Shown: positions 371 to 61,350, numbered from the stretch's first letter. The stretch: DNA of 64,000 nt from Clostridiales bacterium (GCA_015069365.1 SVIT01000002.1:1235-65234), one strand, 5' to 3'. Translations and numbers: made by a program. The notes: generated from the sequence alone by a model not told the origin.

Positions 371-421
371 GATATTATATATCATTTTTCGCAAAAGAAG
401 CCATCTTCTTTGGAGGTTGTT

Positions 422-8501: not shown

Positions 8502-8597
8502 ACTAAGTACTCCTTTTTTAGTTTTTTCCGCTAACGAACAGCGGCTTGTGTTTCTATGATACTGCTTTTTGTTATAATAAGCCAATTATTATATTAC

Positions 8598-20910: not shown

Positions 20911-20913
20911 CCG

Positions 20914-21504
20914 ATGGAGATTTTTATCGAGCCGATCGGGAGATTGATCAACGAGTTTTCGAAGCTTCCCGGGGTCGGTAAGAAGACGGCGCAGCGTTAT
21001 GCGTATAAGATCATCGATATGCCCGAAGCGGAAGCGCGCGCTTTTGCAGAGGCGATTTTGGGGGTAAAGCGTAAGGTGAAATATTGCAAGATTTGCGGTA
21101 ATTTCACCGAAGAGGAAGAATGCGCTATCTGCCGTGCGCGCGATAAGAGCGTGATCTGCGTAGTAAAAGAGCCCAAAGACGTCGCGGCGATTGAGAAACT
21201 GCACGAATTTAAAGGGGTTTATCACGTTTTGCACGGCGTAATCGATCCTTTGGCAGGAGTTGGTCCTAACGATATCCGCATCAGAGAATTGTTGGCGAGA
21301 TTGTCCAGTGACGTGAAAGAGGTAATCGTTGCGACAAACCCCGACGTTTCGGGGGACGCGACGGCAATGTATATTGCGAAGCTGATTAAACCGTTCGATA
21401 TTCCCGTTACCCGTTTGGCGCATGGTATTCCCATCGGGTCGGAAATCGAATATACCGACGACGTGACTCTTGCAAGAGCATTCGTGGAAAGGAACCGCTT
21501 GTAG
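20914..21504 (+). CDS. recR: Recombination protein RecR
   Basis: [11 protein letters not shown] helix-hairpin-helix, a C4 zinc finger (CKICGNF...CAIC), and a Toprim segment ([10 protein letters not shown]...). Confidence 0.95.
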
Positions 21505-21583
21505 TCAGGGTCGAAGAGGCTTGCTTAGGGCTGGTTCCATTCGTTTCAAAAGACTAAAAAAGCAAAAAATAGAGGAAAAAAGT

Positions 21584-22564: not shown

Positions 22565-22578
22565 GGATGAAATTCAGT

Positions 22579-22611
22579 CCGCTCTTGGTAGATTAGCCAA
22601 GGGCGGTTTTT
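22579..22611 (+). terminator. Rho-independent terminator of gpsA
   Basis: CCGCTCTTGG (22579-22588) pairs with CCAAGGGCGG (22597-22606). T5 at 22607-22611. Confidence 0.8.
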
Positions 22612-22619
22612 CTTTGCGT

Positions 22620-22649
22620 GTATAAAAATGCGGTCGAATTCCCACACTG
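22620..22649 (+). promoter_or_regulatory. Possible forespore (sigma-G/F type) promoter for spoVAC
   Basis: GTATA (22620-22624), 18-nt spacer, CACACTG (22643-22649), compared with the sigma-G consensus GHATR-18-CATXHTA (5/5 and 5/7 matches). Confidence 0.3.
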
Positions 22650-22745
22650 ACGGTATGAAACGGATCAAAGTTTACGAGGTGGAGGGAAAGACGCGCGACG
22701 AGAGGGAAACATTCGCGCCGAACACAGTTCCAAACAATGAAACGA

Positions 22746-35129: not shown

Positions 35130-35172
35130 GCAAACCTTTCAATCGCATGATTGAAAAAACTAAATAAAAAGT

Positions 35173-35204
35173 CCGCCGCGAGGTTTCTCGCGGCGGTTCT
35201 TTTT
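35173..35204 (+). terminator. Strong rho-independent terminator
   Basis: CCGCCGCGAG (35173-35182) pairs with CTCGCGGCGG (35187-35196), 4-nt loop, followed by TTCTTTTT. Confidence 0.9.
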
Positions 35205-35487
35205 ATCAAAAGTCCGTTTTAAAAAAAAGGGGGACAATGAAGGTATTTTGTGACAAGAAAAATTGTCCTTTAAAATCGCTTTTTTCGATTAAGTTTATCA
35301 AAAAAACGAATGGTTGTAACGTTCAAAAAGATGTGTATTTTTGTGAAAAAATAACGCTTTTTAATCGTTTGTAACAAAGTGCATTTTTGCTTGGAAAATA
35401 AAGGGAAAGAGGACAATTCTTTTCGCCGTTTTTTGTGAAAATTTTGAGGAAATTGATTGTTTTTTTTGGATTTGCAGGCAAATTGCA

Positions 35488-35516
35488 TTTACTTTTTCGA
35501 TTATATATGATATAAT
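35488..35516 (+). promoter_or_regulatory. Extended -10 promoter (weak -35) for the MoxR operon
   Basis: TGaTATAAT at 35508-35516, with TTTACT at 35488-35493 (17-nt spacer). Confidence 0.5.
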
Positions 35517-35582
35517 TATGCTTACTGAAAAATGGTATTATTATAATCAGCCGTGTCTTCGAATACGGCAAAGGAGTATTAA

Positions 35583-36653
35583 ATGGCAGGTGAATTATTT
35601 AAAAAGTATTATTCGCGCCTGGCACGGGAAGGGATCATCAAATCCGCTTTGGTCGGTATGATTGTCGGATTCTCTACGCTCTTTTTGACATCTATAGTTT
35701 TGTGGTTGATAAATGAGGATCTTTTCTGGCTCGCGTTTATCAGCGGCGCAGCGGCTGGTGCGGTGGTAGCACCGGTGCTCTACTACAAGAAGTTTAAGCC
35801 CACCACAAAAGAGATCGCTCGCAGAGTTGACGAACTGGGGCTTGAAGAACGTGTGCTTACGATGACGGAGCTTGAAAACGATCAATCGTACATCGCGTTG
35901 CGTCAAAGAGAGGATACGGTTGCTGCGTTGCAAACGGTAAACGCAGGACTTCTGTCCATCGTGGTATCCATACCTTTGATCGTCTCTACTTGTGTAACGG
36001 GTGTGTTCGGGGTTGGTATGTCGGTCGTTACGGCGCTCAGCTCGGCAGGCGTTATTGAGAGCGGACGCGAGATAATCGAAGAAGCAATGAAACCTTTGCC
36101 TGAATATTTCGATATCGAATACGAAGTATCGGGAGAGGGCGGTAGAATCCTCAACTTCGAGACGGAAGAGGAAATTCCTTTCCAAGCTGTTGAGAAAGGC
36201 AAGAATGCGATTCCCGTCATTGCAGTGCCCGACGAAGGATACATATTCGTAGGTTGGTCGGATCAGTTTGAAGATCCTTACCGTGAAGATGAGAACATAA
36301 CCCAGCACATGACGTTGATCGCTGAGTTTGCAGAGCTCATGGACGGAGGGGATATGCCTGGCGGTGAAGACGGCTTCCCTGGTGACTTACCTGGTGATTT
36401 AGCAGGAGATCAAGGGAACGGCAAGCCAGGACAGGGCCCTGGCGCAGGCGGCGAGTTCATACCTACCAATCAGATCATCGACGGTGAGACGTTCTACGGA
36501 CATGAATATGAAGCGGCGTTTGAAGACGTACTTAACGTACTTGCTCAGAACGCAGAAATGTCCGATAGATTAAAGCAGTTGATTTCCAACTATTTCGAAA
36601 CGATCAAGACGACGACTTCGGATGATGGAACTTCAGGCAGCAATAGCAATTAA
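35583..36653 (+). CDS. Polytopic membrane protein with an extracytoplasmic InlB-B-like repeat and a Gly/Pro/Asp-rich segment
   Basis: AAGGAG SD. It has 2 N-terminal TM helices, a further hydrophobic pair (LLSIVVSIPLIVSTCVTGVFGVGMSVVTAL), then GYIFVGWSDQFEDPY...LIAEF (Listeria-Bacteroides repeat) and GGDMPGGEDGFPGDLPGDLAGDQGNGKPGQGPGAGG. Confidence 0.6.
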   Translation: MAGELFKKYYSRLAREGIIKSALVGMIVGFSTLFLTSIVLWLINEDLFWLAFISGAAAGAVVAPVLYYKKFKPTTKEIARRVDELGLEERVLTMTELENDQSYIALRQREDTVAALQTVNAGLLSIVVSIPLIVSTCVTGVFGVGMSVVTALSSAGVIESGREIIEEAMKPLPEYFDIEYEVSGEGGRILNFETEEEIPFQAVEKGKNAIPVIAVPDEGYIFVGWSDQFEDPYREDENITQHMTLIAEFAELMDGGDMPGGEDGFPGDLPGDLAGDQGNGKPGQGPGAGGEFIPTNQIIDGETFYGHEYEAAFEDVLNVLAQNAEMSDRLKQLISNYFETIKTTTSDDGTSGSNSN

Positions 36654-36698
36654 AACAAAAGTAAAAAAATAAAAAAAATTAAAAGAAGGGAAATAATT

Positions 36699-37727
36699 AT
36701 GAATGAAAAAGATGTAAACGTAACTGTTGGACAAAACGATATTGATATGTTCTGTAAACAATGTGCAGATATTTTCGAGCAGGTTGGCCGTGACGTTATC
36801 GGTCAGAAAGAAGTTGTAGAAGGTACGATCGTTGCGATGATCGCTGGCGGTAACGTATTGCTTGAAGGTGTGCCTGGGGTTGGTAAAACCCGTCTTGTAA
36901 GATCGTTGGGTAGAGTATTCGACCTTCCTTTCGCGCGTATCCAGTTTACGCCCGACTTGATGCCTGCCGACGTTACGGGTACCAACATCATCGTAAAAGA
37001 TGAAAACGGCAACTCCAGCTTCAAGTTTCAGCCTGGTCCTATTTTCAGCAATATTATTCTTGCCGACGAAATCAACCGTGCAACGCCGAAAACGCAGTCC
37101 GCGCTTCTCGAAGCCATGCAGGAACACACGGTTACCGTAATGGGTACGTCGAGAAAGTTGGAAGAACCTTTCTTCGTACTTGCAACGCAGAACCCTATCG
37201 AACAAGACGGTACGTATCCTTTGCCTGAAGCGCAGATGGACCGTTTCATGTTCAAACTCATCGTTCCCAACCCCAGCCTTGACGAACTTATGCAGATCGT
37301 TGACATGACGCAGAAGACGATGGCGGAAGTTGCAGAGAGCGTATGTAACGGCGAACAGCTCCTTCGCATGCGTGCGACGGCTAACCAGATCCCCGTTGCA
37401 GAAGAAGTGCTTCGTTATGCAATGATCATGACGAGTGCAACCCATCCCGACAGCGAATGCGCAAGCGAAGCCGCAAAGAAATATATCCGTAACGGTGCCA
37501 GCCCCCGTGCAGGTCAGGCTTTGATCTCCGCAGCGAAGGTAAAGGCGCTTATCAAGGGTAGATTCAACGTAGCGTTCTCGGATATCGAAGAACTTGCATA
37601 CCCCGTACTTCGTCACCGTATCAAACTCAACTTCGAGGCGATTGCAGAACGTGTAACGGCAGACGACGTAATCAAAATGATTGTTGAAGAAGTAAGCAAG
37701 AATCCTAAATATAAGAAAGTAAAATAA
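36699..37727 (+). CDS. MoxR-family AAA+ ATPase (AAA_3)
   Basis: Walker A LLEGVPGVGKT, the FARIQFTPDLMPADVTG signature, Walker B IILADEINRA, and the LLEAMQE and ATQNP motifs. Confidence 0.9.
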   Translation: MNEKDVNVTVGQNDIDMFCKQCADIFEQVGRDVIGQKEVVEGTIVAMIAGGNVLLEGVPGVGKTRLVRSLGRVFDLPFARIQFTPDLMPADVTGTNIIVKDENGNSSFKFQPGPIFSNIILADEINRATPKTQSALLEAMQEHTVTVMGTSRKLEEPFFVLATQNPIEQDGTYPLPEAQMDRFMFKLIVPNPSLDELMQIVDMTQKTMAEVAESVCNGEQLLRMRATANQIPVAEEVLRYAMIMTSATHPDSECASEAAKKYIRNGASPRAGQALISAAKVKALIKGRFNVAFSDIEELAYPVLRHRIKLNFEAIAERVTADDVIKMIVEEVSKNPKYKKVK

Positions 37728-37760
37728 TCATTAGTGTAGAGAACACAGGGAGGAAGTAGG

Positions 37761-38663
37761 ATGGCAGAATCTTTCTACTTAAACGATAAATTTTTCAGCC
37801 GATTGGAAACGTTGGCGTTAAATTTAAGAACCAGCCTTGCGGGATATTTCGGTGGTAAACACCTCGTAAGTACATACGGACAAACGGTGGAATTTTCCGA
37901 CTTTAGAGAATATCAACTTGGCGACGATATCCGTAGAATCGACTGGAACTTGTACAGCCGATTTGAGAAATATTTCCTGAAACTGTTCACCGACGAAAGA
38001 CAGATGCAGGTACAGATCTTTTTGGATTGTTCGGCGTCTATGGGTAAGGATAATCCGAAAAAATCTTCCTATGCAATCGCGGCAGCGGCGGCGCTCGGGT
38101 TCTTGGCGGTACATAATATGGATAAACTTTCCTTCCATCTTATGCGCGGCAACCGTGCGGACAATCCTTTCGGTACGATGATCGGTAAGAAAGCATTTTT
38201 CCGAGCAATGGGTACGTTCAACGATCTTGAATTTACCGATGACGCCGATATCGAGGCTTGCGTAACCAGCACCCCCGATACCAGCGTAAACAACGGCTTA
38301 ACGATTATTATTTCCGACTTTTTCACCGAGAGTAATTGGAAAAAAGCGGTAGATTATTTATGCTATAAAAAGCGTCAGGTACTTTTAATCCAAGTAATGA
38401 CGCCCGATGAATACGACCCGAATTACGATGGGCGAGTAAATCTGATCGACTCCGAAGCGGAGGATGTGTCTGACTTTAGAAACATGAAAGTGAAGATCAC
38501 GCGCAGTATGCAAAAAGCATATGAGGAAGCGATGGCAGATTTCAAACAAGACATTAAAGATTTTTGTTCTAGACGCGGAGTAGATTTTATCTCCGTATCC
38601 ACAGATACTCCTATTGAAAGAGTATTGTTTGGCGAATTGTTAAAAGTAGGTATTATGGCATGA
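37761..38663 (+). CDS. DUF58-family protein (vWA-like, MoxR partner)
   Basis: FSDFREYQLGDDIRRIDWNLYSR is the DUF58 signature. A MIDAS-like DCSASMG motif follows. Confidence 0.85.
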   Translation: MAESFYLNDKFFSRLETLALNLRTSLAGYFGGKHLVSTYGQTVEFSDFREYQLGDDIRRIDWNLYSRFEKYFLKLFTDERQMQVQIFLDCSASMGKDNPKKSSYAIAAAAALGFLAVHNMDKLSFHLMRGNRADNPFGTMIGKKAFFRAMGTFNDLEFTDDADIEACVTSTPDTSVNNGLTIIISDFFTESNWKKAVDYLCYKKRQVLLIQVMTPDEYDPNYDGRVNLIDSEAEDVSDFRNMKVKITRSMQKAYEEAMADFKQDIKDFCSRRGVDFISVSTDTPIERVLFGELLKVGIMA

Positions 38664-40666
38664 CATTATTAACACCTTTAGGGCTGTTGGGTTTAATAGG
38701 TATAATCGTCTTGATTATCATCTACATAATCAAGCCCAACTACCAACAAAAAGTAATTTCCAGTACGTACGTTTGGAAATTAAGTTTAAAATATAGAAAG
38801 AAAAAAATTCCCGTAAACAAACTTCGGAATTTCTTGATCATTCTCTGTCAGATCCTTATTTTGACGGCGGCGGCATTGATTTTGGCTGAGCCCGTACAAG
38901 TAATCAAACAAAAGGCGGATCACAGAGAGGTTATTGCGATCATTGATTCTTCTGCAAGTATGCGCACGGAAACGGGCGGTGAAACTCGTTTCGAAAGAGC
39001 GGTAAATCTTGTTTCCGAACTGACTGACGACGTTATGGGCAATTCGGGTACGGTTTCGGTTATTTTAGCGAATGAAAACCCGAGTTTCCTTGCGGAAAGA
39101 TACAATGGCGACAACCGCGCGGTTTTGCTCGATGAACTTTCCTTGCTTGTTGATGACGACGTATGTTCTTACGGCGTCTCCAATATCGAAAGCGCGATCG
39201 TGCTTTGCGAAGACATCTTGGAAGACAATCCCGAGGCAGAGGTACATCTTTTCACGGATACGACGTATAAATACGTTCCTAAGAAGAAAAATGGGGATTC
39301 CGTAATCAACGTAGTCAACGTATCGGACGAAGAGGAATACAACGTTGCGATTTTGGACGCATATTCGGTATATGAAGACAACTTCTACACCTTCTACATC
39401 GACGTTGCTTGCTACGGTCAAGAGAAAAACGTAACGGTAAACGTTTCGATCACTGGTGCAAACGGTGACGGTGAATTCCAAGGCACGGAAAAAGATTATT
39501 CGCACAGCGTACTCTTGTCCCGTGATAAAACGAAGAGAATCGTATTTATCAACAAAGACTTGTATCAAGATATGGAAAGCGAACAGGAAGACGTGGAATA
39601 CTATCCGTTAGAATATGATGAAAGAGTATTCTCCTATAAAGAAGTTTTCGTTTACATCGTAGAAGACGATTCTTTCCAAGACGATAACAACTTCTTGATT
39701 TACGATGGCGGAAAGGAAGTCGTCAAGATTATGTACAAGAGTCCGATTCCCAACCAGTTCTTCCCTGCGGTTATACAAAACTTGCGTTCTATTTACAAGG
39801 ATAAATGGGATTTCTGGATTACAGAAATCAAGGTAGGTACGGAAGAACCCGACCAGGGCTATTCAGGGTTCGATTTCTATTTCTTTGAGCATGAAATGCC
39901 CAAGAAAATGCCTACGGACGGTATCGTATTCCTTTGCGACCCCGATCCCAACCGTGCACCGCCTCCTCAAAAAGCGGATTTCCGTGTGGAAGGTCAGTAT
40001 CACTGGAACGGAAACAGCGTGTATTTGCAAGCGGAAGACGATAAGCACCCGCTGTTGAACTTTATCAATCCGTCCACGATTTCGATCAGTATGTATAACC
40101 GTATTACTTACGGTTCGAGCTACACCCCGTTGTTGCTCACGCCCGACGGAAAACCTGTATTGGCGGTATGCGACGAACCCGATGCAAAGATCGTTGTGCT
40201 CGGTTTCAGCGTTCACTATTCCAACTTAGCGATCAATGAAGGTATTGCTGTATTGCTGTATAACGTGTTCGAATACTTTATGCCTTCGACTGTTAGCAGC
40301 AACTCTTTTGAAATCAACGAACAAATCACGTTGAATGCACGTGGTAGAGAACTTTACGTTTCCAATGAATACGACGCGGAAGACCTCATGGTATTTGAGA
40401 CGTTCCCCGCATCGTTCACGGCGACTATGCCTGGTACTTATACACTTTCGCAAACGACGTTTGCAGGAAAGCCGATCGAGGAAAAGATCTTCGTAAGAAT
40501 TCCCGCATCGGAAAGTAACATTTGGGATACGGAAGACGCTTTGGGTAATCCGTTTAAGGAAATCGAAGCGATTGACTACTTCAACGATTTGATGAAATTC
40601 GTCGCGTTAGCGATGGTAATTATATTATTCATCGAATGGTGGTTGCATAATCGTGAGAATGGGTAA
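38660..40666 (+). CDS. BatA-like membrane protein with N-terminal double TM, one vWA domain and a C-terminal TM
   Basis: ATGA start/stop overlap with the DUF58 gene. The N-terminus LLTPLGLLGLIGIIVLIIIYIIKP is of the aerotolerance-regulator (BatA_N) type. MIDAS motif DSSAS. C-terminal TM FVALAMVIILFIEWW. Confidence 0.75.
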   Translation: MTLLTPLGLLGLIGIIVLIIIYIIKPNYQQKVISSTYVWKLSLKYRKKKIPVNKLRNFLIILCQILILTAAALILAEPVQVIKQKADHREVIAIIDSSASMRTETGGETRFERAVNLVSELTDDVMGNSGTVSVILANENPSFLAERYNGDNRAVLLDELSLLVDDDVCSYGVSNIESAIVLCEDILEDNPEAEVHLFTDTTYKYVPKKKNGDSVINVVNVSDEEEYNVAILDAYSVYEDNFYTFYIDVACYGQEKNVTVNVSITGANGDGEFQGTEKDYSHSVLLSRDKTKRIVFINKDLYQDMESEQEDVEYYPLEYDERVFSYKEVFVYIVEDDSFQDDNNFLIYDGGKEVVKIMYKSPIPNQFFPAVIQNLRSIYKDKWDFWITEIKVGTEEPDQGYSGFDFYFFEHEMPKKMPTDGIVFLCDPDPNRAPPPQKADFRVEGQYHWNGNSVYLQAEDDKHPLLNFINPSTISISMYNRITYGSSYTPLLLTPDGKPVLAVCDEPDAKIVVLGFSVHYSNLAINEGIAVLLYNVFEYFMPSTVSSNSFEINEQITLNARGRELYVSNEYDAEDLMVFETFPASFTATMPGTYTLSQTTFAGKPIEEKIFVRIPASESNIWDTEDALGNPFKEIEAIDYFNDLMKFVALAMVIILFIEWWLHNRENG

Positions 40667-40681
40667 AGGAGAAGTAAAATT

Positions 40682-43492
40682 ATGAAAAATTTCCATATTT
40701 ATTTTGCTTATCCTTGGGCATTGTTGGCGCTTGTATTAGCGGTTGTGCTCACGTTGATACCTTATTTCAGATTATCCAAAAGATACAGAAAAACGCGTAA
40801 CCGTATCACTTCCATTGTATTGCATTTGATTGTAATGACTTTGGCGATCGTTACGTTGGCAGGAATAGAATTCCGTTATCAAATTCCCAACGAAAACAAT
40901 GAGATTATCTTACTTGTCGACGTGTCGGATACCGAAGAAACGGTGGTGGACGAAAGAGACGCTTTCGTCAGATACGTGATCGAGGATGCAAAACATGATA
41001 ATTTCAGGGTAGGTATCGTAACGTTTGGGTACGACTACGAATACGCTGTACCTTTGACTAATGAGTTGGACGGGATATACGATCAGTACTTGAATGCGGC
41101 AAGTCCCGACACCACGGCAACGAACGTTGCGGGTGCACTTGAATATGCGAAAACGTTATTCAACAATCCCGAAACGAGCAAGATCGTTCTCATCACCGAT
41201 GGTAGAGAAACGGACAGAGAAATGACCAACGTTGTGCGCGCGATTTCTGCGCAAGGCACGAAAGTTGACGTGGCGCATATCGGCGAAGGATTCGACAATG
41301 CTGACGTACAGTTGATGGGAGTGGAAATGCCTTCCCACCATATTGCACAGAACGAAGAATGTACCGTTATGCTCAATGTACAAAGTACCGTGGCGACTTC
41401 GGTCAGCATCAGGCTTACCGATAACGGCGAGACGGCGAATGAAGTGACCGTGGATTTGAACAATTCTGGTATGCAAACCGTTCCGTTTGCACACACCTTC
41501 ATCAAAAAAGGATTGCATGAATTGAAGTTCGAAGTCACGCAAATTGCTTTTGACGGCTTGGAACAAAACAACGCATACACCACCTATTTTTCGTTGGAAG
41601 TATTCAATAAGATATTAGTTCTTGAATCGGTTCAAGGTACTTCTGAGGCCTTGATTACCATGCTCAATGAAGGCAACGAAACGCCTTACGAAGTGACGAC
41701 GATGAGTATTCAAGACGAGGAACTTCCCGAATCGGCTGCACAGCTTTGCGCATATGATCAGGTTGTTTTGAACAATATTGCAAACAAAGATCTCCCTGAG
41801 AATTTTGCAGAAGTATTAAAATCCTACGTTTCTGAATACGGCGGCGGTTTGTTCACCGCAGGCGGTGATAAAGCTTATGACCGTTCGGATATGTATGGTA
41901 CTCTTTATCAAGAAATGTTGCCCGTGCAGGCAATCAACTATACACCTCCCGTTGCCGTAATGATCGTACTCGATACCTCTGGGTCTATGAGTACGGAAGA
42001 TAACTACGGCGCAAACAAGCTCGACTGGGCAAAAGCGGGTGCGGCGTCCTGTTTGAACAGCTTGACCGAACGCGACTACGTAGGTATTATGACCCTTGAA
42101 TCGGTCGAATCGACCATTCTCGACTTGACGCCTCGTACGCAGGAATCTCGTATTCTCGCGGCGATCAACTCACTTGAAGAAGCAAACGGCGGTACGATTT
42201 GGACGGGTGCTATCGATCGTGCGGGGAAATCTCTCCGTACTATGAAAGACGTAGCAAAACGTCATATTATCGTCATCACCGACGGTGCAATCGGCGAAGA
42301 TCCCTCAAACTACGAAGGTATCATCAAAGAGTATTATGAAAACGATGGCACGACGCTTTCCGTTGTCGGGGTAGATATGGCGACTGGCGGTAAAGAATAC
42401 GATGAAATGTTGCAAGCAACGCAATGGGGCGGCGGTCAGCTTTACGTTACCTCTGCCGATCAGTTGATCAACAAACTTCGTGACGATTTGACGGCACCTG
42501 CTATTAAACAAGTCAACTACGGCACGTTTAAGCCCATGGCGTACAATATGGCGTCTCCTCTTTTGAAGGGGGTAGGTATGGGCGAAGGCGGTGAAGCGAA
42601 CCGTATCAATGCTACCTTGGAAGGTTTCTACGGTGTAAAAGTGCGTACGGATGCAGAACTCGTTTTGACGGGTGATTACAACGTACCCATCTATGCACAG
42701 TGGGCGTATGGCGAAGGTATGGTCGGCAGCTTCATGTGCGACTTGCAGGCAAGTACTTGGTCTAGCGGCTTTATGGCAGACGCAAACGGTAGAAAGTTCT
42801 TGAGAAATGCAATCAATAACTTGATGCCCAGTGAAGATATTCGTCCTAGCCAGATTGCATATGAAATGACTGAAGACAACTATACCAATCAGTTGAGCGT
42901 ATTCTCCGAATTGAAAGACGGCGAATATATCAAAGGCGAAATCGTCGAATATATCGACGGTGCTGAAGGGGATAGAATTTCTCTGAATGAAATCACACCG
43001 GGCAACGCACAAGCGCTTCGTGAAGCGGACGTTTACGTGACTCTGCCCATGTCTTCGGCAAACGGGTACAGCCGTTGCGACTTTGTTGTAAGAAAGAATG
43101 GCACGTATAAGATCGTGTTGACGAAATACAACAAGGACGGAAAAATTGTTAAGAATGCAAGCGGTGAAGATGTTGTCACGGAAGTATACAAATCGTTTGC
43201 ATACTCTGAAGAATACGACGTATATTCGGAAGACACTGCGGAAGTGATCAGCAAGAAGCTGGCAACGGTTGCAGAACGCGGTCAAGGCGCAGTGATTGAA
43301 GACCTGAACAATCCTTCGGAAGTATTCAACGGATTTGTAACGGCAATTGATAAATCGTTTGATCCCAGATTCTTGTTTATGATCATCGCAATCGTATTGT
43401 TCCTTGGGGATATTGCGGTTCGTAAGTTCAAATTCAAGTGGCCTCACGAGATCATTCGCGACTACAAACAAAAGAAAAACTTAAAGAAATAA
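40682..43492 (+). CDS. Membrane protein with BatA-like N-terminus, two vWA domains and a C-terminal TM
   Basis: AAGGAG SD. N-terminus FAYPWALLALVLAVVLTLIPYF. First vWA has LLVDVSDTE (DxSxT). Second vWA has IVLDTSGSMS (DxSxS). C-terminal TM FLFMIIAIVLFLGDIAV. Confidence 0.75.
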   Translation: MKNFHIYFAYPWALLALVLAVVLTLIPYFRLSKRYRKTRNRITSIVLHLIVMTLAIVTLAGIEFRYQIPNENNEIILLVDVSDTEETVVDERDAFVRYVIEDAKHDNFRVGIVTFGYDYEYAVPLTNELDGIYDQYLNAASPDTTATNVAGALEYAKTLFNNPETSKIVLITDGRETDREMTNVVRAISAQGTKVDVAHIGEGFDNADVQLMGVEMPSHHIAQNEECTVMLNVQSTVATSVSIRLTDNGETANEVTVDLNNSGMQTVPFAHTFIKKGLHELKFEVTQIAFDGLEQNNAYTTYFSLEVFNKILVLESVQGTSEALITMLNEGNETPYEVTTMSIQDEELPESAAQLCAYDQVVLNNIANKDLPENFAEVLKSYVSEYGGGLFTAGGDKAYDRSDMYGTLYQEMLPVQAINYTPPVAVMIVLDTSGSMSTEDNYGANKLDWAKAGAASCLNSLTERDYVGIMTLESVESTILDLTPRTQESRILAAINSLEEANGGTIWTGAIDRAGKSLRTMKDVAKRHIIVITDGAIGEDPSNYEGIIKEYYENDGTTLSVVGVDMATGGKEYDEMLQATQWGGGQLYVTSADQLINKLRDDLTAPAIKQVNYGTFKPMAYNMASPLLKGVGMGEGGEANRINATLEGFYGVKVRTDAELVLTGDYNVPIYAQWAYGEGMVGSFMCDLQASTWSSGFMADANGRKFLRNAINNLMPSEDIRPSQIAYEMTEDNYTNQLSVFSELKDGEYIKGEIVEYIDGAEGDRISLNEITPGNAQALREADVYVTLPMSSANGYSRCDFVVRKNGTYKIVLTKYNKDGKIVKNASGEDVVTEVYKSFAYSEEYDVYSEDTAEVISKKLATVAERGQGAVIEDLNNPSEVFNGFVTAIDKSFDPRFLFMIIAIVLFLGDIAVRKFKFKWPHEIIRDYKQKKNLKK

Positions 43493-43514
43493 AATACGGA
43501 AAGAAATGTACACC

Positions 43515-43545
43515 TCGCGACCATAGGGAGCACCCATGGTCGCGA
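43515..43545 (+). other. 13-bp stem hairpin without T-tract (not a canonical terminator)
   Basis: TCGCGACCATaGGG pairs with CCCATGGTCGCGA, with one bulged A and an AGCA loop. It is followed by non-U-rich sequence. It lies between the vWA gene and the next LRR gene, which has no recognisable promoter of its own. Confidence 0.6.
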
Positions 43546-43596
43546 TGAAACAGAAAATTCGGCAGACGTTCAAGATTTAAGGAGGACGTAGACTAT

Positions 43597-46446
43597 ATGA
43601 AAAAGCTGAAATTTTTCGTTGCGGTCTTATTATCCGTATGCACGTGTTTGGCAATGTGTTTATTTGTCGGGTGTAAAGACTTTGAGCTTTCCACTCCCAC
43701 GAACGTTCAGGTGGATTTGAATCATAAATTGACCTGGGACGAGGTGGAAGACGCGCGCAGTTACGTGGTAGAAATCAAAGACGAAAACGGCGAATTAGTG
43801 GACAATAAAAAAGAGAAGAGAGAATATTCCTCCCTCAAGAACCTGGCGGTGGGGAAATACCTCATCCGCGTTAAGGCGGTAGGTTCTCAAGATGGGGCAG
43901 AATCCGATTGGTCCGCGGCGTTCGAGTTTGACCGCCCTTATGAAACGGGTTGCGTCTATACGCTCGTAAACAATACGGAATATCACATTACGGGGGCAGG
44001 GTCTGCTTCTGGTGACATCGTTATTGAAGATTTTTACAGAAACAAGCCTGTCACGGCGATTGCGGAGAATGCATTTAAAGGCAACGGCCGCGTTACGAGC
44101 GTCGTGCTTGGCAATCAAATCAAAACCATTGGTAAAAACGCTTTTTACAGATGTGAAAATCTTACCTCTATTACGATTCCTGACAGCGTGACGACAATCG
44201 GTCCGCAAGCGTTCCAGCGCTGCGTATCTTTGACGGAAATTTCCATCCCTGACAGCGTGACGATTATCGATGAATATATGTTTGCATATTGCCGTGCGTT
44301 GACGAAAGTGAAATTCAGTCAAAATCTGCAATACATCGGCGAAGGCGCCTTTACCGACTGTTCGGGGATAACCTCTTACGAGCTTCCTGCCTCGTTGATG
44401 CTGATCGGGCCGTATGCTTTCGCTGCAAACACCAAACTCGAATCGGTTAAAATCGGTAAAAACGTGCAGCAGATCGGAGATTTTGCATTCCAGCTTTGTG
44501 CGGCGCTTAATAAGGTCGAATTTGCGGCAGACAGCAACTTATCGTATATCGGCCAACGTACTTTCTACAACGACGCTGAACTGAAGAGTATCACGATTCC
44601 TGGAAAAGTTACCAAAATCGACAATCAGGCATTCTTGAACTGCAGCAAGCTCGAGACGGTGAATTTGCCCGCAAGTTTGTCCTCTCTCGGCAGCGACGTA
44701 TTCAGGTCAACCGCAATTGTGGGTAAACAGGAAGAAGCAAAAGCAGAGGTTTACTACGTAGGGAATTGGATCGTCGGTTGCGACGCGCAAAATCTTTACG
44801 ATAAGATCGACGTCATTGCAACGGAAGAAAACGAGTCTTATGATAAGACGTTGATCATCAGCCCGAATACGGTGGGTATTGCGGCTTATGCATTCCGCGC
44901 GTTTGAAAAATTGACGTTGGTGAATATGCCTACCTCGGTTAAGTATATCGGTGCTTACGCATTTGCACAGTGTGAAAATCTTTCGAGTGTAACCGTACCT
45001 GGGTGCAAGGTAATTGATGATTACGCGTTTGTATTATGTCCCGTTTTGGCGACGTTTGCACAATGCTCCAACCTTGAAGAGATCGGGGATTATGCATTCT
45101 ATGGCTGTTCGCGTATGAGCCGTTTTAACAACAATGCGGATCTTCCCAACTTAAGATCGATCGGTATGTTCGCGTTCAATAGAACGGCAATTTGGAACAA
45201 TACAACGGAAGCAACGAACAACGTGGTCTACGTTGGTAATTGGATAGTAGGCGCAACGACAGGTATTACCGAGTTGCAGATTGATCCGAAAACGGTCGGG
45301 ATTGCGGATTTCGCATTTTACCAGAACGTGAGATTGAATACGGCAAACCTCGCTGGTCTTAACCTGAAATATATCGGAACGGGTGCGTTCTATGAATGTA
45401 TTTCGCTCATGAACGTACAGTTCGGCGCAAACTTGACTACGATTGAAGATTACACCTTCTACAATTGTCTGAAGTTGAGTTTCCTCGGTGGATATCTGAA
45501 CAATTTGAAGACGATCGGCAGATCTGCTTTCTACAATTGTGCGAGCTTGTTAGAGTTGGATTTGAGCATCGCAACGAATTTTGAATCGGTTGGCCAGTAT
45601 GCATTCTACGGCTGTACTTCGCTTGAGAAAGTGAATTTGGGGAACACAGTTAAAACCTTGAATAACTACGCGTTCTATCGCTGTGAAGGATTAAAGGAAA
45701 TCGTATTCCCCGATTCTTTACAAGCGATCGGCAACAGAGCGTTTTACAAGAATATTGCACTGGAAAACGTGACGTTTGGAAACGGATTGGTTTCCATTGG
45801 CCAGTATGCGTTCTCTGGTTGTGAATCACTCAAGGCAATCAATCTTCCCGACAGCTTACGTTATATTGACGCTAGCGCTTTCTACAAGTGTGTTGCGGTG
45901 GAAAACGTAGAATTTGGGAGCAGCTTACAATATATCGGTTCTTATGCATTCTACGGCATTCCCAGCGTAGAGAAGTTGCAGCTTCCCGAAACGGTGGAAT
46001 ACATCGGTTCTTATGCGTTTAAGGGTTGGAACGGACTGCAGTCCATTCTCATTAGCGGCGATATCGATTTCATCGGCGATCACGTTTTCTATGGCTGTAA
46101 ACAAGCGACCGTTTATACATCCGCAACGAAGCCTAATGACGATAAGGCGGAAGGCGCAGCGCTTTGGAGTCCGAAGTTCAATTCTTCGCACCGTCCCATC
46201 GTTTGGGGCTGTACCTTGTCGGAAGACGAATCCTACGTGGAGAGCGTTACGATTACCAAAGAAACCTTTGAAAACGATAAGGCAAACGGAGGTTTTACAG
46301 CACCTGAAAGAGAGGGGTATACCTTCAAAGGTTGGGCGATAGCGAAAGGCGGCAGCGTGGTATTTTCCGCGGCGGATATCCAAAAAGCTGGCGTAGGGGC
46401 TACCCTCTATGCGGTATGGGAAATCGCGGAGCCTGTGGTTGAGTAA
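43597..46446 (+). CDS. 949-aa surface lipoprotein: Fn3-like module, BspA-type LRR array and a C-terminal Listeria-Bacteroides repeat
   Basis: AAGGAGG SD. Lipobox LFVGC|K. LTWDEVEDARSYVVEI Fn3-like unit, then about 30 LRR units, then a C-terminal GYTFKGWAIAKGG...LYAVWE. Confidence 0.85.
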   Translation: MKKLKFFVAVLLSVCTCLAMCLFVGCKDFELSTPTNVQVDLNHKLTWDEVEDARSYVVEIKDENGELVDNKKEKREYSSLKNLAVGKYLIRVKAVGSQDGAESDWSAAFEFDRPYETGCVYTLVNNTEYHITGAGSASGDIVIEDFYRNKPVTAIAENAFKGNGRVTSVVLGNQIKTIGKNAFYRCENLTSITIPDSVTTIGPQAFQRCVSLTEISIPDSVTIIDEYMFAYCRALTKVKFSQNLQYIGEGAFTDCSGITSYELPASLMLIGPYAFAANTKLESVKIGKNVQQIGDFAFQLCAALNKVEFAADSNLSYIGQRTFYNDAELKSITIPGKVTKIDNQAFLNCSKLETVNLPASLSSLGSDVFRSTAIVGKQEEAKAEVYYVGNWIVGCDAQNLYDKIDVIATEENESYDKTLIISPNTVGIAAYAFRAFEKLTLVNMPTSVKYIGAYAFAQCENLSSVTVPGCKVIDDYAFVLCPVLATFAQCSNLEEIGDYAFYGCSRMSRFNNNADLPNLRSIGMFAFNRTAIWNNTTEATNNVVYVGNWIVGATTGITELQIDPKTVGIADFAFYQNVRLNTANLAGLNLKYIGTGAFYECISLMNVQFGANLTTIEDYTFYNCLKLSFLGGYLNNLKTIGRSAFYNCASLLELDLSIATNFESVGQYAFYGCTSLEKVNLGNTVKTLNNYAFYRCEGLKEIVFPDSLQAIGNRAFYKNIALENVTFGNGLVSIGQYAFSGCESLKAINLPDSLRYIDASAFYKCVAVENVEFGSSLQYIGSYAFYGIPSVEKLQLPETVEYIGSYAFKGWNGLQSILISGDIDFIGDHVFYGCKQATVYTSATKPNDDKAEGAALWSPKFNSSHRPIVWGCTLSEDESYVESVTITKETFENDKANGGFTAPEREGYTFKGWAIAKGGSVVFSAADIQKAGVGATLYAVWEIAEPVVE

Positions 46447-46496: not shown

Positions 46497-46526
46497 TTTA
46501 CAAATGAATACAAAAAATGTTATAAT
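46497..46526 (+). promoter_or_regulatory. Sigma-A type promoter with extended -10
   Basis: TTTACA at 46497-46502, 18-nt spacer, TGtTATAAT at 46518-46526. The leader to ATG 46638 is about 105 nt. Confidence 0.65.
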
Positions 46527-46637
46527 AGTATGATGGGTAAAATGGTTATTTCAAGATAAATGAGTAGGCGGTGCCGTAGCGAAAGCTGCGGCTACGGAAC
46601 TCCTCCGATCGCCTCTCATCTCATCAAGGAGAGTCAT

Positions 46638-49600
46638 ATGAAAGGACAAAAAATTAACGTAACAGAAAAAGAAACTGTTTTAAAGAAGAGTAAGAGCAAA
46701 TTGCTTGCATCGGTTGCAAGCGGTTTGTTCGGCGCGGCGCTTATTGCAGGTTCGTTATTTGCAGTGGGTTGTAGCGACGATTCTTCGGATAAAGTTAAAT
46801 ACGTGTTTAATACGATGGGCGGCGCGTCCATTTCCGATGTGGAAGTGGATCTCGGCGCAGAATACACTCTTCCCATTCCCGAACAGAGAGAAGGATTCTT
46901 ATTCGAGGGTTGGTACACGACGGAAACGTTCGACGGTTTCCCCGTAACCACGGTAGAGGCGCAGGCAAATCAGACGTATTATGCAAAATGGACGCAGCTT
47001 TCTCAAATTACTTTGGAGTTGGACGGCGGTACGCTTGCACAGACGAAGCTGTATTTGAAAGCTGGCGAAAATTTGTATGCGTTTATGCAGGACTATCAGC
47101 CCACGAAAGAGGGTTTGACTTTCGGCGGTTGGTTCAACGGTAACAATGCTTTGACGGCTACTACGAAAATGCCTCAAGACGGCATTACCCTTACTGCGAA
47201 GTATAAGGTAAGCTATACCGTAGAAGTCTACATGCAGGATTTGGAAAATTCGGCTACATATTCGCTCAGCGAAAAATATACGGTGACTGGCAGTGATTTT
47301 GTTGGTAAAACCGTTGTATCCGAAAAGCCTGAAGTGGAAGGTTGCGAGGAAAACGCAACGCACGCGGACAGAGTGGTTACCAAAACGCTTAGCGCAACTT
47401 CCAGTGAAAACGTATTCAAATATTATTTTGACAGACGCGTATGCAACGTTACGTTTGTTGTCCGTTATCCCGACGGTACGAGCGGTGAGGAAATCACCGT
47501 TACGAAAAAGTATGGGGAATACATCAAAGACGCACCCGATACGTATACGGCAGAAGGATACTGCTTGATCGGTTGGGGGGAACTTGGTGCGGAAGTACCG
47601 ACGTATGAAGTATATGCGGTGGACAAAGCGCTCCAAAACGGCGACGGCACGCAAAGAGCTCCTCAAGAATTCACGCCGACAGGCGATATCGTTTTGTACA
47701 GTGTATGGGCAAAAGGGTATACCGATATGTTCAGCGGGGACGATTACCTGTTCTTCCTTGACAAGGCTGAAGACGGGGAGTTGGATAAAACGACCATTTA
47801 TTTGTCCCGCGGTAATCAATTCTTCAAAGGAAAATATTTTGAGAATATGAACGTGTTCTTCTTCTATGACACGGAAGATACGACGAAGATCATTCTCAAC
47901 GGTAAGCTGTATGACAATAACAAGTTTGCGTATACCAGCACCAAGAGAAGCCAGAAAACTGCGTTCATGTACACGATGGGCGTCGGAACGGACGAAAGCA
48001 TCTTCCTCAAGTTTGACGAAACCAACGGTATCACCTACGTGAACAACGGTGATGAAACGAAGGGTACGCAGCAGATGAACGAAGACGGCGAATACGTTGC
48101 AGACTTTACGGGGGCAACGGAGGGCATGCTGAAAGGTCAAAAGCTTACATTCCTGCTCGGTACGTTTAACGATAAACCCGCGTTTATTCCTTTAAATAAA
48201 GAAGAAGTGGACTATGGTACGTTGAAGAGATTCTACTTCAACGACGAAGAAAAGAAATTGGAAACGTATGCTAACGGTTTTGGCGATATCACGCTTGACG
48301 GTTACGGCAATGCAACGTATAACAACGGTTCGCAGCTTGCGCCATATTATTATACTCGTGAAGGAGACGTTATCACGCTGACGTCGCAATACGGCGGCTT
48401 GTTCGGTAAAGCAATCCTTACGGAGAATAAGGGTGTAAAGGGCTACGTGTTATATACCCAGTGGCAGGACAGAGAATTCCAGATCGACGGCGCGAAACTG
48501 GTGCTTGACGGCGGTATCAAAGCGACCTATACGGCTGCTGATGGTACGACGGTAGACGGTTACTACAAAGCAGTAGAATCCCTTTTTGAGGGGTACGTAA
48601 TCGAAGTTGATACCAACGACGATCAAAAATTCACCTTTATCATTAAAAATATTCAGTTCAACGACGACGGCACGTTAAAGGATTTTGATGTTAAAAAAGT
48701 TCTGAATTCCTATGCGGAATACCGTTATCTTGCCGATGGCAGAGTGTACAACGCAGCTGCAATCGTTATCGATGAAACGAAAGAGGGTTGGCTGTCGCTC
48801 TACGGATTCAATTCCCGTTTGAACGAATTTGTAAAAGTTTCCGAAGGTCCTTACCGTAAGGATTCGACGAGCGAAAAAGATCCCTATTATTATTATGAAG
48901 TAGAAAATGCTGCAAGCGGTGTAGAAGGTATTATTTCCTTGCCTGGGCATGAAAACAAGGTAACGCCTGCGGATATTCAATCCTTCGTGTTCGCATTGGA
49001 CAGCGAAACGACGGCGTACAGCCTTTTCTATTGGAAATCTTCCGTAATGACAGGCAACGTCAACAAGGAATACGTTGAAGAATATACTTGTGAATGCGAC
49101 AAGGCGGACTGTGAAGCTTCGTTGAAATTGGTGGGCGGGTTTGCTTACTACACGACACAAGACGGTGTGTCCGTATCCGGTGCATACGGTACGTTTGAAG
49201 ACGCAACGTATATCGTGATTCTTACGAGCAGTATCGCGGGTAACGTAAATTACTACGTAGATCTCGATCAGGACAACAAAACGTTTATTCCTCTGGAATA
49301 CCAACCTTACACGGCGTATTTGTATGATGAATTCGGCGATTTCAGTGTCGAAGAAGACGCTGTAAAATTGATCTTCGACGGTAAGGGCAACGCAACCTAC
49401 GTGGATCAGAACGGCAATCCTGTGCCTGGTAAGGTACGCGTGACCGATAACAAGACGGGCAACGTAAGCATTTCTGAATTTAAGGCGGACGATAATTCGA
49501 TCACCTTTAATTATATCGGCGGATTGAGTGTAGGCGGCAACAGCGCGTTCCTCCTTTACAACGAGAGCGTTAACGGCGAATACGAATATAAGAAGGATAA

Positions 49601-59688: not shown

Positions 59689-59709
59689 CAGTGTAAAAAA
59701 GAGGATTTT

Positions 59710-61323: not shown

Positions 61324-61350
61324 AAAATATATATAAACGGAGGCAGTAAA

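Follow-up and report, generated by a model that had tools for sequence, protein, structure and literature searches.

A MoxR/DUF58/vWA gene run fixed among genes for LRR and putative beta-propeller lipoproteins in Clostridia

The window analysed here, a stretch of 64,000 nucleotides from a Clostridiales bacterium, carries a close series of genes, all on the + strand. The first, g0 (26589-35129), encodes a 2,846-aa lipoprotein recognised by Pfam and its lipobox. It is followed by six genes identified from open reading frames and Pfam: g1 (35583-36653; 356 aa, a 3-TM membrane protein), g2 (36699-37727; 342 aa, a MoxR-type AAA+ ATPase), g3 (37761-38663; 300 aa, a DUF58 protein), g4 (38660-40666; 668 aa, BatA_N and one vWA domain), g5 (40682-43492; 936 aa, two vWA domains), and g6 (43597-46446; 949 aa, an LRR_5 lipoprotein). 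The product of g7 (46635-51917) is a lipoprotein of about 1,760 aa, as judged from Pfam, lipobox, AF2, and Foldseek; the program opened its ORF at 46560, and the ATG at 46635 is the likely start. From g1 to g5 the intergenic gaps are 45, 33, -4, and 15 nt, the -4 being an ATGA in which the start of g4 lies on the stop of g3. The motifs GVPGVGKT, FTPDLMPADVTG, RRIDWNLYSR, DCSAS, DSSAS, DVSDT, and DTSGS were all found in the translations. The genes g1-g6, the gaps, and the motifs, together with the hairpin and SD sequence between g5 and g6 described below, had been listed in a sequence-only reading of the same DNA, and ORF calls, Pfam, translation, and folding confirmed them all. SpoVA genes in the window indicate that the host is a spore-former of Clostridia. 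LRR_5 genes are common in the source genome, and a further one lies at 410-2329.

The MoxR/DUF58 pair is well preserved. The g2 product matched AAA_3 (3e-62) and AAA_lid_2 in Pfam and PDB entry 2R44 at 2e-74, and it has Walker A (GVPGVGKT), Walker B (ILADEINR), and the AAA lid domain. The g3 product matched DUF58 (5e-32) and carries RRIDWNLYSR and the MIDAS-like DCSAS; as it contains no TM segment, it is predicted to be cytoplasmic. The Walker A/B and lid motifs of g2 are invariant in 54 orthologues, the DUF58 motifs are likewise invariant, and the median identity among orthologues is 85% for g2 and 72% for g3. With its motifs intact, this engine looks active.

Three membrane proteins accompany the pair. 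In g1, with three predicted TM helices, Pfam found a divergent InlB B-repeat, Flg_new_2, at 25.9 bits (cutoff 23.6). Its best-conserved part is a predicted cytoplasmic loop (aa 79-111; D-x2-GLEER-x2-TM...S..A..QR.D), and the rest is predicted to consist of a domain outside the cell with the InlB B-repeat, a linker of disordered G/P/D sequence, and a helical hairpin at the C terminus. The AF2 model of g1 (pLDDT 73) gave no fold match in the PDB, and the g1 family comprises 278 proteins, all hypothetical. In g4 (BatA_N and VWA_2 in Pfam), a BatA_N double-TM anchor is followed by the vWA domain (DSSAS), an unassigned ectodomain of about 430 aa, and a C-terminal TM helix; a PDB search with its sequence gave no match. 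In g5 (two VWA stretches in Pfam), a double-TM anchor is followed by vWA1 (DVSDT) and, after a middle domain, by vWA2 (DTSGS...T505...D534); a C-terminal TM helix and a near-invariant cytoplasmic tail, RKFKFKWPHE, complete the protein. vWA2 resembles the BatB structures 4jdu and 3ibs, and MIDAS residues are conserved. The loop within the predicted N-terminal TM pair is strongly basic in both g4 and g5. The vWA domains of g4 and g5 are predicted to face outward from hydropathy and the positive-inside rule, and from a single homologue with experimental data, the BatA-type protein BB0173, for which experiment gave three TM helices and an outward vWA domain (PMC5700661).

The candidate partners g0, g6, and g7 are all lipoproteins, and all have Flg_new domains. 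As the sequence-only reading had proposed, the repeat type of g1 recurs in the neighbouring giants: Pfam found the InlB B-repeat (Flg_new) in g0, g1, g6, and g7. In g0, the lipobox IMAAC and N-terminal Flg_new repeats are followed by 17 LRR_5 stretches, and its counterparts in loci L087-L089 and L085 have 2,803-3,235 aa. In g6, the lipobox is FVGC, a conserved N-terminal domain (aa 27-125) stands at the same position in 77/77 loci, and six LRR_5 stretches (2e-152) precede a C-terminal Flg_new domain; in NCBIfam, g6 also matched the adhesin model HupY/LrrG (3.5e-58), far under the equivalog cutoff. The g7 product has the lipobox FAVGC with an invariant Cys, N-terminal Flg_new repeats, and then an all-beta region of about 1,400 aa, predicted to form tandem beta-propellers (AF2 pLDDT 83.6). 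The Foldseek matches of g7 were DDB1 and CPSF160 with a probability of about 1 and TM scores of only about 0.1; thus, 'beta-propellers' is a domain-level reading.

Position 35488, formerly taken as the start of the gene run, is instead where a promoter-like site upstream of g1 has its -35 hexamer (35488-35516; TTTACT-17-TATAAT with an extended -10 TG, 10/12, a consensus match only), and the g1 ORF opens at 35583. An intrinsic terminator (35173-35196; a 10-bp stem with nine GC pairs, then a T-run) lies 3' of g0, and a strong promoter-like site (46497-46526; TTTACA-18-TATAAT with TG, 11/12, likewise a consensus match only) lies 5' of g7. The g5-g6 spacer contains a 13-bp hairpin (43515-43545) in which a single A is bulged and the loop reads AGCA; it lacks a U-tract because TGAAACAGAAAATT comes next. 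The spacer folds at -30.2 kcal/mol (z = -4.2 against shuffles), and an 85%-identical relative keeps the hairpin with one compensatory and one wobble change. Many loci with a long spacer carry GC hairpins non-homologous to this one. AAGGAGG is placed about 8 nt upstream of the g6 ATG, and no promoter-like site was found within 43493-43596, in agreement with the earlier account, in which no promoter had been found for g6. We infer that g1-g6 form an operon from the promoter-like site at 35488 with g6 as the last cistron, in which the stable hairpin could attenuate read-through; g0 and g7 adjoin it obligatorily, each with a control region of its own.

For comparison among genomes, we used g5, with its two vWA domains, as the forward anchor in 80 species-level genomes of related gut Clostridia (g5 identity 43-62%), and g6 was counted over the 77 loci having sequence downstream of g5. 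An orthologous LRR lipoprotein of about 950 aa follows g5 directly on the same strand in 77/77 loci, with a median gap of 28 nt, and in 27 of the 77 g6 overlaps the g5 stop codon by 4-8 nt. The next gene is g7 (about 1,700 aa) in all 68 loci with enough sequence (median gap 72 nt); it is linked as tightly as g6, and the earlier account had omitted it. The giant LRR lipoprotein g0 (about 2,800-3,200 aa) is found directly upstream of g1 wherever upstream sequence exists. With g7 as a reverse anchor in metagenomes, the same block was recovered in 27/27 loci. Co-occurrence of MoxR-DUF58-vWA with LRR genes, which the sequence-only reading had set as a test, thus held in both directions, and the comparative sequence evidence strongly supports the view that the LRR lipoprotein g6 belongs with the MoxR/DUF58/vWA genes.

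No foreign ORFs were found inside the block. The flanks beyond g0-g7 vary between species (LuxE/C, GlnA, DHOase, and flavodiiron protein genes among those downstream; upstream, one locus has GDH and the window SpoVAD), so selection acts on the block of about 25 kb as a unit. The core is therefore a fixed eight-gene locus, g0-g7 (26589-51917 in the window), rather than an operon set within an 'adhesin island' of variable content, as it had been framed. Where one genome has paralogous blocks, g4, g5, g6, and g7 have concordant nearest neighbours; such blocks are inherited whole. In four loci MoxR-DUF58 is absent between g1 and g4. In L030 the pair is relocated 3' of g7, still inside the block, and in L060 it was found neither between g1 and g4 nor up to 2 kb downstream; thus, the surface genes may tolerate the engine in trans, or none. 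Conservation is far higher in the cytoplasmic parts (MoxR, DUF58, and the g5 tail) than in the ectodomains (31-46% identity); within g5, the mean column identity is 0.93 for the tail, 0.82 for the cytoplasmic loop, and 0.57 for the ectodomain.

Our literature search found no paper describing a MoxR/vWA-LRR/propeller locus. The order of MoxR (MRP-type AAA_3), DUF58, and BatA_N double-TM/MIDAS vWA membrane proteins is that of Bat-like operons, named after Bacteroides aerotolerance. However, the present locus has no TPR (BatC), BatD, or SH3 (BatE) gene. Its vWA proteins far exceed theirs in size, with 668 aa in g4 and 936 aa in g5, which has two vWA domains, and carry a C-terminal TM helix and a conserved cytoplasmic tail. 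The novel 3-TM InlB-repeat protein g1 opens the MoxR gene run, and in every case the run stands beside genes for two LRR_5 lipoproteins and a predicted multi-propeller lipoprotein; the host belongs to the spore-forming Clostridia and is no diderm. BspA-type surface proteins such as HupY/LrrG share LRR_5 with g0, g6, and the downstream g8, but the proteins of this locus are lipoproteins, combine an InlB B-repeat with an N-terminal domain specific to the block, and are genetically fixed to MoxR/vWA. In Borrelia burgdorferi, BB0172 and BB0173, near the MoxR gene BB0176, are likewise vWA/MIDAS membrane proteins of a MoxR cluster, and BB0172 was reported to bind integrin alpha3beta1 (PMC5700661), which gives a precedent for adhesion by a MoxR/vWA module. 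There the vWA protein itself is the adhesin, whereas here the candidate binders are separate LRR/propeller lipoproteins. In RavA-ViaA, CbbQ-CbbO, NorQ-NorD, and midasin, a MoxR-type AAA+ protein and its vWA/MIDAS cofactor remodel or assemble a client complex (PMC7159879); those clients are cytoplasmic or membrane enzymes, whereas the candidate clients here are extracellular lipoproteins across the membrane. Inside-out activation of the integrin I-domain offers an analogy only: the MIDAS vWA domain is extracellular and binding could be controlled from cytoplasmic tails, but the vWA fold is all that is homologous, and that an AAA+ ATPase exerts such control here is a hypothesis.

We consider, with a probability of about 0.55, that g0-g7 encode one cell-envelope apparatus of Christensenellales-like gut Clostridia, in which MoxR/DUF58 works via three membrane proteins on a surface LRR/propeller complex. 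Clustering that is conserved demonstrates common selection but not that the products touch one another; which proteins make contact, in which direction the system acts, and what it binds are inferred, as follows. A hexamer of the MoxR protein g2 would remain in the cytoplasm together with the DUF58 protein g3 as a vWA-like adaptor, and both would engage the conserved basic cytoplasmic parts, namely the loops of g1 (GLEER...), g4, and g5 and the g5 tail RKFKFKWPHE. Outside the membrane, three MIDAS-type vWA domains of g4 and g5 and the InlB B-repeat of g1 would bind membrane-tethered g6 (LRR_5), g7 (beta-propellers), and g0 (giant LRR_5), and ATP hydrolysis would drive assembly or a conformational switch of a surface complex that binds in a metal-dependent manner. 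The protease g8, g9, and a peptide-binding lipoprotein may extend it in about half of the species. The topology and conservation patterns are consistent with roles in maturation, gating, and metal-dependent adhesion. The surface lipoproteins are concrete candidate partners for the MoxR ATPase family, which is poorly understood.

Co-regulation without contact, in which a generic Bat-like module for envelope maintenance or stress lies beside independent LRR/propeller adhesins for joint expression, is a possible but rather unlikely explanation. It would fit the Bat-like operons of Bacteroides, Leptospira, Borrelia, and Riemerella, which have stress/envelope phenotypes and no reported LRR partners, as well as the separate promoter-like and terminator signals of g0 and g7 and the lack of a local MoxR-DUF58 in L060. 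However, co-regulation alone rarely keeps an eight-gene order at 31-46% protein identity while both flanks decay, and the frequent g5-g6 stop/start overlap, the shared Flg_new module, and the g1 and g7 families, known only from this block, also argue against it.

The genes downstream of g7 suggest a more specific version of the apparatus model, namely that the LRR/propeller lipoproteins capture protein or glycoprotein, g8 degrades it, and SBP_bac_5 collects the peptides, with MoxR/vWA as organiser. The accessory genes, also on the + strand, are g8 (52042-59688), identified by Pfam as encoding a 2,548-aa lipoprotein that combines S8 subtilase, PA, and Fn3_5 domains, as in cell-envelope proteinases, with LRR_5 repeats and, at its C terminus, a TM helix; g9 (59710-61323), a 537-aa lipoprotein with no Pfam match; and a partial SBP_bac_5 lipoprotein gene of the oligopeptide-binding type (61351-64000), cut by the window end. 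The order g7, S8+PA+Fn3_5+LRR_5 protease, g9, SBP_bac_5, with 20-30 nt spacing, recurs in the window, L090, L091, and L100-L122, and it resembles the lactococcal PrtP/Opp logic. g9 adjoins g8 wherever g8 occurs, and its orthologues in L090 and L091, where SBP_bac_5 is again the next gene, are 45-46% identical. However, g8 follows g7 in only roughly half of the loci, the others having unrelated housekeeping genes in place of g8-g9; thus, proteolysis is not the core function, and we regard this version as doubtful.

An outside-in sensor, in which a ligand from the host or from microbes is recognised by the LRR/propeller ectodomains and the vWA proteins signal inward to MoxR/DUF58, seems improbable. 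LRR domains serve as receptors in many systems, and conserved cytoplasmic loops and tails combined with fast-evolving ectodomains in g1, g4, and g5 would suit it; but kinase, DNA-binding, and cyclase domains that could serve as output are all absent from the block, and to our knowledge MoxR proteins are described as remodelling ATPases, not signal outputs.

We also compared the block with the ternary conflict systems of Kaur, Burroughs, Iyer, and Aravind (2020), which likewise combine MoxR with vWA and, in one class, with a beta-propeller. Although MoxR, vWA, and a predicted propeller protein are all present and g2 passes the Pfam bpMoxR cutoff (38 bits against 27), g2 scores 209 bits with AAA_3, and its P-loop is the canonical GVPGVGKT rather than the GXXXTAKS variant frequent in two of the conflict systems. 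Systems of the Kaur type are cytoplasmic, contain effectors, and are enriched in multicellular bacteria, whereas VMAP, iSTAND, FtsH, effector, and EAD domains, their third components and effectors, are all absent from the block, its propeller protein g7 is an exported lipoprotein, and PADLOC gave only weak AAA similarity. A defence function is thus very improbable. Finally, chance adjacency of a variable adhesin island and an unrelated operon, with meaningless read-through, might be suspected from the abundance of LRR_5 genes in the source genome (e.g., 410-2329), but it is refuted by the 77/77 forward and 27/27 reverse linkage and the orthologous architecture of g6.

The genes for three lipoproteins, g0, g6, and g7, share one fixed order with a MoxR operon, and we consider it very probable (about 0.9) that these lipoproteins are functionally part of the MoxR module. 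In the window, six ORFs (g1 to g6) were found on the plus strand where the sequence-only reading had placed them, with gaps of 45, 33, -4, and 15 nt between successive genes from g1 to g5. All the motifs quoted in that reading were present in the translations, and Pfam searches bore out each of its domain assignments: a divergent InlB B-repeat in the membrane protein g1 (35583-36653), AAA_3 (3e-62) and an AAA lid in the MoxR protein g2 (36699-37727), DUF58 (5e-32) in g3 (37761-38663), BatA_N and VWA_2 in g4 (38660-40666), two vWA domains in g5 (40682-43492), and LRR_5 (2e-152) with a C-terminal Flg_new in g6 (43597-46446). The preceding gene, g0, encodes an LRR_5 and Flg_new protein of 2,846 residues with the lipobox IMAAC; the lipobox of g6 is LFVGC. 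The following gene, g7, encodes Flg_new repeats and the lipobox FAVGC. The ATG at 46635 was preferred as the start of g7, since it is this codon that the signal peptide and invariant lipobox Cys follow, and the mechanical ORF starting at 46560 (beginning MSRRCRSESCGYG) was set aside. Its 5' extension (46560-46634) overlaps the region right after a strong promoter-like site (46497-46526). All of the large plus-strand genes from 26589 onward encode exported proteins. Three long minus-strand ORFs (36633-37616, 42305-43471, and 60976-63042, the last with no Pfam match) overlie conserved plus-strand genes and were regarded as shadow ORFs.

The upstream part of the window contains housekeeping and sporulation genes (dnaX, recR, gpsA, spoVAC, a Na/Pi transporter, and spoVAD); thus, the source is the chromosome of a spore-forming member of the Clostridia. 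An extra LRR_5 protein (639 aa) is encoded on the plus strand at the start of the window (410-2329), distant from the g0-g7 block, and an 820-aa ORF without a Pfam match lies on the minus strand at 6123-8585.

To examine the conservation of the block, we used the g5 family, which comprises 1,072 clusters at E <= 1e-10. Their sole annotation is 'VWA domain-containing protein', and they derive from uncultured Clostridia, Neoclostridium, and Borkfalkiaceae (placed as Christensenellaceae by NCBI). Scanning one genome of each GTDB species with a profile gave 316 relatives. The best 80 of the 316, with g5 sequences 43-62% identical to that of the window, were taken with 10-kb flanks, and the window proteins were compared with all ORFs of these loci by BLASTP. 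The same order recurred on one strand: the LRR giant, g1, MoxR, DUF58, g4, g5, an LRR protein of about 950 residues, and g7 of about 1,700 residues. The sequence-only reading had proposed phylogenetic linkage as a test of its interpretation, and the linkage was found: an LRR lipoprotein gene directly follows g5 in all 77 loci with downstream sequence. The N-terminal domain of g6 (aa 27-125) was found at the same position in 77/77 loci, and the C-terminal Flg_new in 69/77; therefore, the downstream LRR genes are true g6 orthologues. A lipobox is present in 72 of these 77 orthologues. The g7 gene follows g6 in every locus with enough sequence (68/68; median gap, 72 nt). An ORF search in all the loci found no unrelated ORF inside g0-g7.

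The linkage was also found in the reverse direction. A g7 profile was compared with metagenome contigs and gave 31 full-length relatives, 27 of which had upstream sequence; in all 27, an LRR gene lies directly 5' of g7. This LRR gene is preceded by g5 wherever the contig is long enough, and by g4, g3, and g2 wherever the flank extends to them. Full-length relatives are scarce for g7 (about 74) and for g1 (278 matches, all hypothetical proteins). These tests cover the lineage carrying the g5 and g7 families, and all the relatives are metagenome-assembled. The records of L011, L012, L051, and L062 have the implausible titles Anaeroplasma bactoclasticum, Prevotella sp., Parasutterella excrementihominis, and Acidiphilium sp., respectively, and are probably mislabelled or contaminated bins.

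The earlier framing of the region as a variable adhesin island did not stand, since the order of g0-g7 is fixed and only g8-g9 vary. The gene upstream of g0 is that for glutamate dehydrogenase in L087, whereas it is spoVAD in the window, and g0 is 2,803-3,235 residues long in other lineages. After g7, an S8-LRR gene is present in about half of the loci; the others have LuxE/LuxC, beta-eliminating lyase, metallophosphoesterase, dihydroorotase, flavodiiron protein, glutamine synthetase, or recombinase genes. In each of three genomes, the block is present twice, as diverged copies (L007/L054, L030/L059, and L060/L074). For g4, g5, g6, and g7 alike, each copy is nearer to the blocks of other species than to its own paralogue. 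These concordant relationships indicate that the block duplicates and is passed on as a unit, and that the duplication is old and involved the whole block.

The arrangement of g1 to g6 is that expected of a single operon: the genes lie on one strand with short or overlapping junctions and no intrinsic terminator, and their adjacency is kept across species. At the 5' side, the g0-g1 spacer (35130-35582; 453 nt) is AT-rich and contains several T/A runs, a strong intrinsic terminator that ends g0 (35173-35196), and, downstream of it, a promoter-like site (TTTACT-17-TATAAT with TG) whose -35 element is at 35488. This spacer is longer than the other junctions also across the loci (median, about 210 nt), consistent with a promoter region of its own. 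No Rfam family matched the g0-g1 spacer, and a scan of the whole window gave no matches; thus, no known riboswitch or leader was found 5' of g1 or g6.

At the g5-g6 junction, the features described from the sequence were all confirmed, namely a 13-bp hairpin without a U-tract (43515-43545), the Shine-Dalgarno sequence AAGGAGG 5' of g6, and, in a promoter scan, no promoter-like site in the spacer. The fold of the spacer has an energy of -30.2 kcal/mol (z = -4.2). In a relative at 85% identity, the hairpin persists with two altered pairs, one by a compensatory change (C-G to U-A) and the other by a wobble change; in a relative at 62% identity, another GC hairpin occupies this place. Many loci with spacers of at least 50 nt have strong, non-homologous hairpins without U-tracts, and none was found where the genes overlap. 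GC-rich hairpins were seen in the spacers of L001, L004, L007, L013, L017, L022, L025, L028, L041, L050, L071, and L078, as in the window (43515-43545); that of L041 consists of a tandem repeat of about 45 nt with a structure of -59 kcal/mol. With the g6 starts adjusted to the signal peptide and lipobox, g6 overlaps the g5 stop by 4-8 nt in 27 of the 77 loci; the gap has a median of 28 nt and is larger than 100 nt in just three of the 77. At the sequence level, g6 is translationally coupled to g5 in a third of the species. We rejected the hairpin as a full terminator, because it has no U-tract and the overlapping junctions in 27/77 orthologous loci leave no space for it. Such hairpins could be attenuators, RNase barriers, or REP-like elements; we infer that the hairpin is an optional intercistronic element (an attenuator or RNA-stability determinant) that would tune g6 relative to g1-g5, and not an operon boundary.

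The two genes g2 and g3, here called the engine, encode proteins without a TM segment. With scores of 208.7 bits for AAA_3 (Pfam cutoff, 27) and 62.9 bits for AAA_lid_2, g2 is a MoxR of the MRP/AAA_3 type, and its closest solved relative is MoxR 2R44 (2.3e-74). The Walker A (GVPGVGKT) and Walker B (ILADEINR) motifs are intact and invariant in 54 orthologues. The MoxR lid region and the DUF58 RRIDWN and DxSxS motifs are also invariant. The MoxR and DUF58 genes lie 33 nt apart on the same strand, and the pair occupies this position in 76 of the 80 loci. It is missing between g1 and g4 in L015, L018, L030, and L060. In the case of L030, the pair is located after g7 (20723-22681); thus, it moved yet stayed inside the block. 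In the case of L060, glutamine synthetase follows g7 and no MoxR was seen, and the second block of the same genome (L074) has MoxR-DUF58; the engine may be shared in trans between blocks. Compared with the window, MoxR has a median identity of 85%, DUF58 of 72%, g5 of 46%, g4 of 42%, g1 of 37%, and g7 of 31%. By this measure, conservation of the engine contrasts with fast evolution of the surface.

Both g4 and g5 have an N-terminal TM pair with a strongly basic loop between the helices, a large middle part, and a C-terminal TM segment. From this loop, the vWA domains are predicted to face outward according to the positive-inside rule, and the prediction agrees with the topology mapped by experiment for the homologue BB0173, namely three TM helices and a vWA domain in the periplasm (PMC5700661). 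The g4 protein scores 38 bits for BatA, 45.6 bits for VWA_2, and 20 bits for TIGR02226, the last being under its cutoff of 23; a PDB sequence search with g4 gave nothing. The DxSxS motifs are conserved, and the conserved MIDAS residues are D96/S98/S100 in g4 and D80/S82/T84 and D431/S433/S435/T505/D534 in g5. In g5, the mean column identity is 0.93 in the tail RKFKFKWPHE (tail peptide VRKFKFKWPHEII), 0.82 in the cytoplasmic loop, and 0.57 in the ectodomain. The most conserved segment of g1 is likewise its cytoplasmic loop (D83-x2-GLEER-x2-TM...S102...QR.D). Cytoplasmic elements are the most constrained parts of g1, g4, and g5. The AF2 model of g1 (pLDDT 73) has three TM helices, a small cytoplasmic helical unit, a helical hairpin, a disordered G/P/D linker, and an extracellular beta domain (the B-repeat). 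This model had no Foldseek match at E <= 0.001 and no solved structural relative.

The gene set is fixed, and g0, g6, and g7 are obligatory lipoproteins, all with the InlB B-repeat that g1 also has. A mechanism for which we see somewhat better than even odds is that MoxR/DUF58 would act on the cytoplasmic loops and tails of g1, g4, and g5, that the vWA ectodomains would bind g0, g6, and g7 via MIDAS, and that ATP would be spent on assembling or switching a surface binding complex. A stronger version, which we regard as unlikely, would make the block an adhesion machine of gut Clostridia, powered by ATP and controlled 'inside-out' in the manner of integrins. In it, a pull by cytoplasmic MoxR/DUF58 on the invariant tails of the vWA membrane proteins, or a remodelling of these tails, would open or close the extracellular MIDAS sites of these proteins, whereby the giant LRR and beta-propeller lipoproteins would be loaded, released, or activated. 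If true, this would be the first defined client set of a Bat-type MoxR and a new bacterial control of surface binding. In a more extreme form, the block could drive surface movement.

The block has MoxR, DUF58, and BatA_N-vWA in common with the Bat-like operon. However, domain searches found BatC (TPR), BatD, and BatE (SH3) in no gene of the block, which in turn adds g1, the two-vWA protein g5, g6, g7, and g0. The nearest precedent is Borrelia BB0172/BB0173. A MoxR-vWA(-beta-propeller) ternary conflict system was also considered and rejected, in which the third component is VMAP, iSTAND, FtsH, or a cytoplasmic propeller with effector or EAD domains (PMC7159879). The block contains no VMAP, iSTAND, FtsH, effector, or EAD domains, and its propeller candidate, g7, is an exported lipoprotein, not a cytoplasmic propeller. 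The MoxR of the conflict system is of the bpMoxR type, often with the P-loop GXXXTAKS, whereas g2 scores 38 bits for bpMoxR against 209 for AAA_3 and has the canonical P-loop GVPGVGKT. A defence system in general was dropped, as PADLOC gave only weak AAA similarity.

To our knowledge, the MRP-type MoxR/DUF58/vWA (Bat-like) operons are widespread, and their clients are still essentially unknown. Full-text literature searches returned no article that connects LRR or BspA proteins to MoxR or DUF58, and none that connects Christensenellales to LRR proteins. The invariant coupling names the extracellular lipoproteins g0, g6, and g7 and the novel membrane protein g1 as candidate partners, and clear targets for mutation exist in the Walker B motif, the aspartates of the MIDAS sites, and the tail RKFKFKWPHE. 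The locus spans about 25-35 kb and is duplicated in some species, and the genomes carrying it are expected to be small. The relatives derive from human, ruminant, rabbit, and chicken gut assemblies. The size, duplication, and gut occurrence suggest that the block is probably a major surface structure of an abundant, poorly studied commensal group.

Of the lipoproteins, g6 is of the BspA-type LRR_5 surface class (LRR_5, 500 bits; signal peptide; lipobox). It also matched the HupY/LrrG adhesin model (3.5e-58) and the NCBIfam model for Gli349, the gliding leg protein of Mycoplasma mobile (8.7e-23, model positions about 2688-2748, far under the cutoff), probably through shared LRR_5-like repeats. 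Past its N-terminal Flg_new repeats, g7 has no Pfam domain; a PDB sequence search matched the InlB B-repeat only, and no short, regular repeat period emerged from a simple motif search. The AF2 model of residues 300-1400 is all-beta and confident (pLDDT 83.6). Its top Foldseek matches are the multi-propeller scaffolds CPSF160, DDB1, LRP2, teneurin, and PorZ, with a probability of about 1 and a TM score of only about 0.1; the likeness is thus at the domain level, and the propeller assignment is predicted.

A second lipoprotein run after g7 was observed in only about half of the related loci (window, 52042-64000; L090, 14976-24947; L091, 15028-25001), with genes 20-30 nt apart. It comprises an S8 subtilase/PA/Fn3_5/LRR_5 protein of the cell-envelope proteinase type (g8 in the window, with a lipobox and a C-terminal TM segment), a 505-537-aa protein without a Pfam match (g9; 537 aa, with a lipobox), and an SBP_bac_5 lipoprotein of about 870 residues (partial in the window, from 61351 to its end). 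This run looks like a proteolysis and peptide-capture module, a hint that in some species the complex may feed a route of proteolysis and peptide uptake.
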